A DNA stretch of 64,000 bases from a virus, in IMG/VR virus record IMGVR_UViG_3300045125_000101, positions 74,068 to 138,067 of that record; one strand, written 5' to 3'. Below are positions 21,942 to 42,488 of this stretch, piece after piece. A model generated the notes under the pieces. The model worked only from the letters and a program-made list of their open reading frames with translations, made no database searches and was not told where the DNA came from. The translations under genes and the position numbers were made by a program. How positions within the stretch are numbered: the stretch's first letter is position 1; the number at the start of each line of letters is the position of its first letter.

Positions 21942-22328
21942 TGGTGGACGTGGCGGAAGTCGAATCCGCGTGCTGTATAATATAACTACAACCATATACA
22001 TGCTTATCTCTTATAATCCGACTAAGTTTGGTAGAGCACCACTTAGAAGTTGAGGACTCTGTATTATCTCGCTGTTGTTACGACCCTCGTCCTCACAACA
22101 GCCAGCAGATGGTCGAGCGTTGTTATTCCATATATCTGCGTCAATAGATAAAACGGGTAGCAACTTAGGCTGCACAGCAACTTCGCTCTTGCGGCTTACG
22201 CTCAAGAACGATGTCTTTGCAAGATTTCTCTTAGCATTTATTTTTTCCAACGGGTATTATACAGAGACATTAGACTCTGTGCATGCGGACTCGTATCTAC
22301 ACTATATAGTAGAATCCAGAACACGCCC
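21942..22328 (-). ncRNA. ssrA: tmRNA
   Basis: 5' GGGCGTGTTCTGGATTC; 3' T-arm plus CACGTCCACCA with G3:U70; resume context AAATAAAT-GCT; tag frame ending GCA GCC TAA. Confidence 0.93.
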
Positions 22329-40787: not shown

Positions 40788-40863
40788 TGCGGGGTGCATC
40801 GGATTTGCACCGACTCTCTATAGATTGACAATCTATCGCTTGTGCTTCATAAGCTCCCACCCC
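40788..40863 (-). tRNA. trnD: tRNA-Asp(GTC)
   Basis: ATAGA-TTGTCAA-TCTAT; no intact CCA in this read. Confidence 0.78.
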
Positions 40864-41024
40864 ATATAAATTTATTAGCAAGATGTGAATTCACTTATCA
40901 CCATTTAGCGTGTTTGCACGTCCATACTGACTTTAACAGTCTCTTCTTGCTACAAAACGATATTTTTACTAGTATTGTCGTAAAAAATTACTTAATTATC
41001 AATCCGTTGTATATATATGTATAT

Positions 41025-41661
41025 ATGAAATATGAAAAAGTATTTGTAATAGGATTCAATAAAACTGCTAGTACCAGTTTTCATAAATTATTTGTACATT
41101 TAGGTCTTCCATCTGTGCATACTCGAGAATGGAAATATAAAAAATATACATGTTTTTCTGATGGGAAAAGGCATACACTTGACGGACCTGATAATTTTAA
41201 ATCTTTGGAACAAAGATTCCCAAATGCATTGTTTATACTAAATACTCGACCATTATCTCAATGGTTATTTAGTAGAGCTAAACATGGTATAATATACCCA
41301 CGCAAATGGTCTTATCCAGCAACCCACGAAAAATTTATAAAATGGATAAATTCCAGAAATTCTTTTCACGATGAAGTATTGAGTTTTTTTTTCAAAAATC
41401 TCCAAACAAACTTCTTGTGATAAATATAAATAATAAAAATTGGGAATTGATGGTGGCAAATGAATTGGGATTTTGTAATCACGAACAATTATTTCATGTC
41501 AACTCAATACCAGAAAGTACCATTCCAGAATTCACGCTATTAGAAATATAAAAATATTTTAACAGAAACTTTCAAAATGTTAAATATGAATGAGAATTGA
41601 GCAAAACCGTTTGGACATAGATTCGGAATTAGTAAAATGTTACAAACACAATTTGTATTAA
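41025..41661 (+). CDS. Sulfotransferase-family protein (frameshifted)
   Basis: KVFVIGFNKTASTS (5'-PSB loop), FPNALFILNTRPLSQWLFSR. Confidence 0.75.
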
Positions 41662-41663
41662 AT

Positions 41664-41751
41664 TGATGCTCCGAGAGGGACTCGCACCCCCGATGACATT
41701 TTACTGCGGCGGCTTAAATGCCAAACCTTTCGCCGCTGAGAGAATCGGAGC
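41664..41751 (-). tRNA. tRNA-like gene, probably tRNA-Lys(TTT) with long variable arm
   Basis: GCTCCGA/TCGGAGC acceptor and T arm; anticodon loop ATTTAA is one base short. Confidence 0.55.
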
Positions 41752-41756
41752 ATAAA

Positions 41757-41981
41757 TGAATTACCAGTGTGGGGTTCGCACCCACCATACACTATTTTTT
41801 CCGTGATGGTCTGAACATATCGTGCACTCTGTTCTTGGTTTATCAACCGCAGCTATTTCACGCTTGGCAGTTGATATCCGACTTATCGGTCGTCGTACCT
41901 ATCACTTGGTCTCACAGAAGCGACCCGCAAGATTGCTGATGTGTATGCTACGACTGCTAAGATTCTGCATCTTACTGGTAA
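41757..41981 (-). ncRNA. ~225-nt RNA with tRNA-like acceptor and T arms
   Basis: TTACCAGT/ACTGGTAA, GTGGG-TGCGAAC-CCCAC and multiple internal helices. Confidence 0.65.
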
Positions 41982-41983
41982 AG

Positions 41984-42059
41984 TGGCTGTCCCAGCACGG
42001 TTCGAACGTGCGACCTTGAAGTTAACAGCTTCTTGCTCTGCCGACTGAGCTATGGGACA
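41984..42059 (-). tRNA. trnN: tRNA-Asn(GTT)
   Basis: GAAG-CTGTTAA-CTTC, CCA. Confidence 0.93.
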
Positions 42060-42068
42060 ATAATACCG

Positions 42069-42488
42069 TCATCTTGTTCTGCATGACAGTTTGAACACAC
42101 CAATATACATTTTTCCGCTTCTTCTTTTAAGCGAGCAAATGATTTTGTTCGTTCCACTAATTTGAAAATCTTTGTTGTTTGGATCTTTATGGTGGAATTG
42201 TAATGCTCTCTGGCATTTATCGTAGCCACAGCAAACGCATTTTCCGCCCATATGTTCTATCAACTTTTGCTTGGTACGTCTTCTCCATTCTGTGACTGCT
42301 TTCACTTTTTGATCTGCCCTAACCACATCTTCCATTTTTCTATTTTTTATTATTAAATATTTTGCTAAAGTGTGCCTGTGCCAGCCAAACTTTTTTCCTA
42401 CTTCGGAAACAGGAACATCATTTTCATCATAAAATTTTTGCATTTCTGCTATTTGGTCTGCCGTTGGTTTTATATTCTTTGTGTACAT
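42069..42488 (-). CDS. HNH homing endonuclease
   Basis: GGKCVCCGYDKCQRALQFHHKDP...LVCSNCH. Confidence 0.85.
   Translation of the reverse strand: MYTKNIKPTADQIAEMQKFYDENDVPVSEVGKKFGWHRHTLAKYLIIKNRKMEDVVRADQKVKAVTEWRRRTKQKLIEHMGGKCVCCGYDKCQRALQFHHKDPNNKDFQISGTNKIICSLKRRSGKMYIGVFKLSCRTR

Follow-up and report, generated by a model that had tools for sequence, protein, structure and literature searches.

Extra small RNAs have been known from phage tRNA clusters since the 1970s, the species 1 and species 2 RNAs of phage T4 among them, and to our knowledge a function has never been found for them. Species 1 RNA is encoded by rnaC, a 139-nt gene with rnaD as its neighbour (NC_000866, 70908-71046), and its sequence and fold reveal a 7-position terminal stem that runs straight into the T arm, with an insert of ~105 nt. 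The function of this RNA is still unknown (PMC9697503). We describe here an uncatalogued RNA gene that a clade of uncultured phages carries in its tRNA cluster, and whose closest known analogue is T4 species 1 RNA. In both cases a gene for a small RNA, known to be stable in T4 and putatively so here, sits directly against tRNA genes of a phage cluster and on their strand, and in both a terminal stem and an adjacent T arm enclose a folded insert, with no anticodon arm. The T4 RNA differs in the size of its insert and in its canonical UUCGAAU T loop, whereas the new RNA, unlike rnaC, displays a U-G-N-G-A loop, a hairpin at the D position, a possible pseudoknot and a covarying palindromic loop. 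A covariance model of the new RNA (R2) yielded no match in the T4 tRNA region (L090) at E up to 5. A structural search of 80 related loci for other long stretches bounded by a terminal stem and a T arm recovered only tmRNA and tandem-tRNA artefacts.

The gene was found in a 64,000-nt stretch (hereafter the window) that forms part of a 138-kb virus record in IMG/VR. On the minus strand of the window lie an array with no fewer than 20 tRNA genes and a tmRNA gene (21942-22328; 83.8 bits with the Rfam model, G3:U70 present, not reported by ARAGORN). As claimed in a first-pass annotation of this stretch, the RNA gene starts 2 nt past the CCA of a tRNA-Asn gene (41984-42059), and 9 nt lie between its end and a tRNA-Lys(UUU)-like gene (Table 1). 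No sigma-70-like promoter or terminator-like site was detected between the RNA gene and the flanking tRNAs. Its slot is constant across 20 copies, namely Gly-...-Asn-Trp-element-(Lys UUU or Asp GUC)-Tyr-Arg-Glu-Gln, and the downstream neighbour varies among them, being this tRNA-Lys, a different tRNA-Lys or a tRNA-Asp. The conserved block starts with the first base of the terminal stem and continues right up to the following tRNA, regardless of its identity: the tail and linker, UUCA and UUUAU, are identical across all 17 copies of groups 1 and 2 irrespective of the next tRNA, and the group 3 copies have UUUA-UUU in this region. On the upstream side, tRNA-Trp and the RNA gene are separated in the window by an inserted HNH gene and a second tRNA-Asn, and a sulfotransferase gene occupies the same place in one relative (L103). 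A functional tie to tRNA-Lys(UUU) was suggested by the first four copies, which included a non-homologous tRNA-Lys after the RNA gene in L087, and was dropped because tRNA-Asp follows in others.

The genes around this slot show several features of their own. The tRNA-Lys gene that bounds the RNA gene, the only tRNA for Lys within the array of the window, has a 6-nt anticodon loop (AUUUAA) and a UCA end in this record; its orthologues in L005 and L088, both called tRNA-Lys by ARAGORN, have a CUUUUAA loop and a CCA end, and the oddities of the window copy could be due to a homopolymer assembly error or to decay. A second, unrelated tRNA-Lys(UUU) at L087:1015-1090 (+) forms a perfect cloverleaf with D loop UAAAGUG and T loop GGCAGUA; it is missed by ARAGORN and scores below the Rfam tRNA gathering threshold, and its sequence recurs downstream of the RNA gene in L097. 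The window also contains a tRNA-Asp(GUC)-like gene (40790-40863, -) with a UGCAAAU T loop, which scores 42.5 bits with the Rfam tRNA model and is missed by ARAGORN; in L098 and L092-L096 a tRNA-Asp(GUC)-like gene lies directly 3' of the RNA gene, in place of tRNA-Lys. The HNH endonuclease gene (42050-42488, -), which together with the duplicate tRNA-Asn precedes the RNA gene in this record only, is apparently frameshifted: CxxC...HH belongs to ORF 42069-42488, whereas the second CxxCH falls within ORF 42050-42229, which overlaps it; the 139-aa HNH ORF has no match in Pfam. Sulfotransferase-like genes are found within the tRNA arrays (for example L103:3298-3894, +, and 40842-41420, +, in the window) at sites and in orientations that vary between relatives. 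Adjoining the array in L005 is a gene for a 686-aa protein with CHASE2 and adenylate/guanylate cyclase regions (L005:4633-6693, -), relatives of which are encoded on at least 599 IMG/VR stretches.

A total of 20 copies of the element, 14 of them distinct, were recovered, with 74-99% identity to that of the window. Pattern scans, both exact and degenerate, uncovered L005 and L091-L099 in IMG/VR and L087 and L088 in metagenomes, and contigs encoding homologues of the neighbouring 220-aa and downstream 246-aa proteins contributed L101, L102, L116 and L118 along with the divergent copies L103, L107 and L119; some copies were found by patterns in which part of the sequence was set in advance, which for group 2 included the palindromic loop. 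The covariance models R1 and R2 score 275-293 bits in the window and 188-296 bits in 19 other contigs. With these models no copy was detected in more distant relatives, represented by 80 related loci and 44 whole records; pattern scans of 185,579 prokaryote species genomes found no copy, and blastn against 50,697 GenBank phage records returned zero matches. A search against Rfam 15 matched no family at gathering thresholds or at E up to 10, either with the window copy or with a divergent one, and a known Rfam family, which the first-pass annotation had allowed for, does not account for the gene. The arrays themselves are mosaic, with orthologous tRNAs 54-100% identical between contigs, and the element is conserved at least as well as the tRNAs that flank it. 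Indels of 1, 8 and 34 nt in its internal domain (the cargo) exclude a reading frame on either strand. The supported helices are rich in G.U pairs, which on the opposite strand would read as A.C mismatches, and this asymmetry identifies the tRNA-sense (minus) strand as the folded one.

Table 1. Features of the RNA gene and its 3' boundary in the window; position n of the RNA corresponds to window coordinate 41982-n.
Feature	Window coordinates	Strand	RNA positions	Remarks
Whole RNA gene	41757-41981	-		225 nt in the window; 224-258 nt among relatives
P1, terminal (acceptor-like) stem, 5' strand	41974-41981	-	1-8	
D-position hairpin	41959-41973	-	9-23	5-bp stem, 5-nt loop GCAGA
Candidate pseudoknot, GUCGUA strand	41949-41954	-	28-33	
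Candidate pseudoknot, partner strand	41892-41897	-	85-90	
Helix B, 5' strand	41939-41947	-	35-43	anticodon-arm position
Hairpin H50	41910-41932	-	50-56/66-72	9-nt loop
Irregular helix C (candidate)	41803-41905	-	77-85/172-179	closes h93, H106 and H148
Small hairpin h93	41878-41889	-	93-104	
Hairpin H106	41841-41876	-	106-141	variable peripheral arm
Hairpin H148	41813-41834	-	148-169	12-nt loop; stem pair 149:168 changes from A-U to G-C
Palindrome GUGCAC	41822-41827	-	155-160	in the H148 loop
Helix B, 3' strand	41786-41795	-	187-196	abuts the T stem, no linker
T-arm-like hairpin	41769-41785	-	197-213	stem GUGGG/CCCAC, 7-nt loop U-G-N-G-A-N-N
P1, 3' strand	41761-41768	-	214-221	right after the T-arm hairpin
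3' tail UUCA and linker UUUAU	41752-41760	-		reaches the first base of the next tRNA
Downstream tRNA-Lys(UUU)	41664-41751	-		long variable arm; 3' boundary, outside the RNA

Every one of the complementary segments listed in the first-pass annotation was found on the minus strand at 41757-41981. The 225-nt stretch folds at -70.6 kcal/mol, beating 200 of 200 dinucleotide shuffles (z -3.67). In the final alignment (A9), 17 pairs show double changes and 96.8% of the cells are paired; none of 500 shuffles scores as high and slid controls fall far lower. The compensated pairs are distributed over P1, the D-position hairpin, helix B (three pairs), the T stem (one), H50, H106 (six) and H148. Double changes in B, P1 and H148, as well as those in the palindrome discussed below, are confined to one branch (groups 3/4), and each of them thus counts as a single evolutionary event. 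The structure is conserved in homologues, and the four-arm frame, originally read as a tRNA-like acceptor/T module around a large folded domain, is backed by compensatory changes.

The frame comprises four helices that meet at one junction in cloverleaf order: the terminal stem, the D-position hairpin, helix B and the T hairpin. The acceptor-like stem had been proposed with 8 bp, and seven of these pairs are kept in every copy; pair 3:219 shows a compensated change, being A-U in 11 and G-C in 3 of the 14 distinct copies, and pair 8:214 is either U-A or U.G, or is lost through deletion of U8. The proposed D-position hairpin likewise displays a compensatory change, at 13:19, which is U-A in the window and C-G in the other 13 distinct copies, and its pair 10:22 is broken in two copies. 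At the anticodon-arm position, the CATACAC/GTGTATG helix (helix B, with 35-41 pairing to 190-196) has acquired compensatory changes at 39:192 (C-G to U-A), 40:191 (A-U to G-C) and 42:188 (A-U to G-C), with 100% of its cells paired. The GTGGG/CCCAC T arm contains one compensated pair, the outer pair 197:213, which changes from G-C to A-U in L119. The T loop is fixed at positions 1, 2, 4 and 5 and variable at 3, 6 and 7; it lacks the canonical UUC, and its position 56 varies. No covariation between the D loop and the T loop was seen in alignment A9 (positions 14-18 versus 204). T loops of the UGCGA type are also present in cloverleaf tRNAs (Trp, Lys and Pro) of the same arrays, as are other non-canonical T loops, namely UUAAA in Arg(ACG) and AUCGU in Glu, in a survey (window, L005, L087, L088 and L091-L098) that used a crude extraction and in which some loops are possibly mis-registered.

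Helix B leads into a cargo of ~150-185 nt that takes the place of the anticodon loop. Its 5' part contains H50, a single hairpin over positions 50-72 that is absent from the list of the first-pass annotation; pair 55:67 occurs as C-G, U.G or A-U with 100% of cells paired, and pairs 53:69, 54:68 and 56:66 alternate between wobble and Watson-Crick forms. Two local helices in this region (46-48/53-55 and 57-62/67-74) are broken by L103 and L107, and were replaced by 50-56/66-72. Complementarity is present for the proposed helix GTGATAGGT/ACCATCAC (helix C), and its flanking pairs are invariant, but 79:177 (G-C, G.U or G.A) and 81:175 (U-A, C.A or G.A) are non-pairs in about half of the copies; positions 81 and 177 each occur as three different bases, and 87.8% of the cells are paired. 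A register-shifted pairing of 77-81 with 172-176 is contradicted by G81 in L101. The CCGA/TCGG hairpin (h93) also held in part, with three pairs kept and 95:102 occurring as G-C or G.U, but the fourth pair changes from A-U to A.C in most copies. Both strands of the possible pseudoknot GTCGTA/TACGAC are invariant across the 14 distinct copies, and the pairing has a probability of 95% in the nested ensemble; given that it crosses helix B, it would constitute a pseudoknot if formed.

The remainder of the cargo is formed by two further hairpins, and compensatory changes were found in both the 10-bp helix and the GAACA/TGTTC helix that had been listed in this part of the molecule. H106 shows double changes at 106:141, 107:140, 108:139, 109:138, 110:137 and 111:136, and its loop is expanded by 8 nt in group 2 and by more in L119, where the insert spans 34 alignment columns. 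Long stretches of the RNA (28-54, 76-91 and 193-203) are constant apart from the changes at paired positions given above; alongside the variable H106, this is what a folded core with a single peripheral arm would look like. Two further candidate functional elements, a repeated CCAAG motif and an A-run at 182-187, were discarded, as neither is kept in groups 3/4. A search for an antisense target within the same genome returned only chance-level 18-nt matches.

The apical loop of H148 reads GA-GUGCAC-GAUA in groups 1/2 and GA-ACAUGU-GAUA in groups 3/4 (3 copies). Thus, six of six bases differ between the two forms, all by transitions, while both are perfect palindromes and the flanking GA and GAUA are invariant; the constancy within groups 1/2 is partly by construction, as the group 2 search pattern fixed this loop. 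A run of six adjacent differences has a permutation p of 0.026 (window versus L107), to which the retention of three self-complementary pairs contributes a further ~1/27. The self-duplex energies of the two 6-mers are -10.7 (GUGCAC) and -6.8 kcal/mol (ACAUGU). Given that these six adjacent bases are unable to pair intramolecularly, a loop-loop homodimer is the simplest reading, and the RNA probably pairs with a second copy of itself via H148 as a kissing-loop homodimer. A purine-flanked GUGCAC palindrome in an apical loop also constitutes the dimerization site of HIV-1 (PMC7357161). The two cases share the same 6-nt palindrome in such a loop, along with a second natural variant that is also palindromic; however, the RNAs and their biology are unrelated, the loop is 12 nt here versus 9 in HIV-1, and the phage dimer is deduced purely from covariation.

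The same loop could alternatively act as a conformational switch, pairing in cis with the 3' strand of helix B (190-195) and thereby competing with B. GUGCAC can indeed pair with GUGUAU at six of six positions, two of them wobbles, and loop positions 158-160 covary with 190-192 in alignment A9; however, in groups 3/4 the pairing of ACAUGU with GCAUAU includes a C.A mismatch, whereas self-pairing is six of six Watson-Crick in both forms, and we regard such a switch as distinctly unlikely. A more basic alternative is a structured RNA without a tRNA-like frame, in which helix B and the T arm give way to a local 3' hairpin (172-179/190-198) and a hairpin with a GNRA cap; such an RNA would be released merely through the processing of the flanking tRNAs. 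With the first nine distinct copies this fold and the one proposed in the first-pass annotation were about equally good: their energies are close, the non-tRNA-like fold is both the minimum-free-energy fold and the RNAalifold consensus of those copies, and the changes GCGA to GAGA and U-A to U.G in the T loop are compatible with a GNRA hairpin. The GNRA-hairpin fold is rejected on the divergent copies. Groups 3/4 leave 186:200 and 185:201 unpaired and convert the closing pair of the GNRA loop to U.U, position 197 changes to A and pairs with U213 rather than C173, and helix B gains its three compensated pairs where the competing hairpin breaks, so that the non-tRNA-like alternative appears unlikely. 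The tRNA-like fold in turn differs from the established RNAs that it recalls, and the gene does not encode a tRNA, an intron-bearing tRNA, a tmRNA or a member of any Rfam family. The Rfam tRNA model (RF00005) has no match inside 41757-41981 at E up to 10, though it detects the flanking tRNAs, and ARAGORN with default settings finds no tRNA at the element. P1 and the T hairpin, corresponding to the acceptor/T part of a tRNA, are present in the 14 distinct copies with 3:219 and 197:213 compensated. The further likeness to tRNA lies in the four helices at one junction, the stacking of the terminal stem beside a hairpin with a 5-bp stem and a 7-nt loop, and a tRNA-like slot and spacing; the differences lie in the absence of an anticodon stem-loop, in the linkers (0, 11, 0 and 0-1 nt versus 2, 1, 4-5 and 0 in tRNA) and in a T loop of U-G-N-G-A-N-N rather than UUCRANN.

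A tRNA gene split by an intron, self-splicing or otherwise, whose product would decode after splicing, might be expected in an array rich in homing endonucleases, and 28-33/85-90, lying beside 77-85/172-179, is reminiscent of how P3 and P7 are arranged in group I introns. Nevertheless, with introns of up to 250 nt allowed, ARAGORN calls Ile, Thr, SeC, Arg or Pro depending on the copy, besides wrong-strand calls, and there is neither a consistent anticodon arm nor a variable region between B and the T stem. In agreement with the original observation that group I core motifs are not recognisable, Intron_gpI (RF00028) has no match at E up to 10; H148 is separated from the 3' strand of helix C by 2 nt, which is short for a group I J8/7, and the genes upstream and downstream differ between copies, which therefore have no common exons. 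Taken with these points, an intron is highly improbable. Marginally easier to entertain, and still very unlikely, is entry into the ribosome by a small RNA that either resembles tmRNA or is aminoacylated in some other way: a terminal stem, T arm and long helix are the plan of the tRNA-like domain of tmRNA, and the 3' tail N-UCA resembles N-CCA. Like tmRNA (RF00023), the RNA combines an acceptor stem and T arm with a long helix that replaces the anticodon arm, a large domain and pseudoknot potential, whereas it has a D hairpin rather than an open D loop, lacks the UUCGA T loop and is ~140 nt shorter; the likeness to tmRNA that had been pointed out is thus architectural only, and T4 rnaC is closer. 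The alanine identity pair of tmRNA is G3:U70, and, as had been noted for the window, it has no counterpart here, since 3:219 is A-U or G-C and never G.U. Models of the tmRNA clan in Rfam do not match at E up to 10, the lack of an obvious tag frame is borne out by ARAGORN -m, which finds none in 9 copies, and by indels that break the frames and leave none conserved, and the phage already encodes a tmRNA. Finally, the stretch might lack any function as RNA, being either a relic in decay or an element that acts as DNA, for instance a site of recombination or attachment; the mosaic content of the arrays and the damaged appearance of the neighbouring tRNA-Lys in the window would suit this, but at least seven helices kept by compensation, the G.U asymmetry and a conservation equal to that of the tRNAs render it exceedingly improbable. 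Readings as a group I intron, RNase P, a YrlA/Y RNA or a T-box were also discarded, having no Rfam support and an unfit topology.

In light of these comparisons, we consider it rather probable that the gene specifies a stable non-coding RNA in which a tRNA frame carries a cargo, and which is processed by tRNA enzymes, dimerises through H148 and acts in trans. It would be co-transcribed with the tRNAs of the array, and RNase P would cut its 5' end via its own tRNA-like frame. The 3' end could be generated either by RNase P cleavage of the next tRNA followed by trimming or by an RNase Z-type cut after U222, and CCA addition might possibly follow. The tRNA frame would thus serve as a handle for processing and stability, a role that is likewise assumed for the frame of T4 species 1 RNA. 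Having dimerised through H148, the RNA would then act in trans, neither decoding nor carrying a tag. Our best guess is that it functions in trans as a tRNA-shaped decoy or scaffold for a protein that belongs to host defence or to the machinery of tRNA or translation.

On a bolder and decidedly tentative reading, which we would not presently expect to hold, this RNA is the first representative of a class of phage RNAs that have a tRNA frame and act as kissing-loop homodimers, their cargos joining two tRNA-shaped ends. If this were true, the dimer could link or sequester two molecules of a factor that binds tRNA, such as a processing enzyme, an elongation factor, a ribosomal site or an anticodon nuclease. 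We know of no homodimer among tRNA mimics. Natural RNA homodimers in general are rare (PMC7357161), and should the dimer prove real, the very short list of functional RNA dimers would gain a tRNA mimic that is a natural homodimer. What is new in the present RNA is an apical-loop palindrome, that of H148, which has changed at all six bases yet is still palindromic. The gene offers a larger and better-constrained example for the old puzzle of the extra RNAs of phage tRNA clusters. Should its frame truly act as a handle for RNase P and for processing at the 3' end, it would point to a general route by which phages may express and stabilise arbitrary RNA cargos from their tRNA operons.
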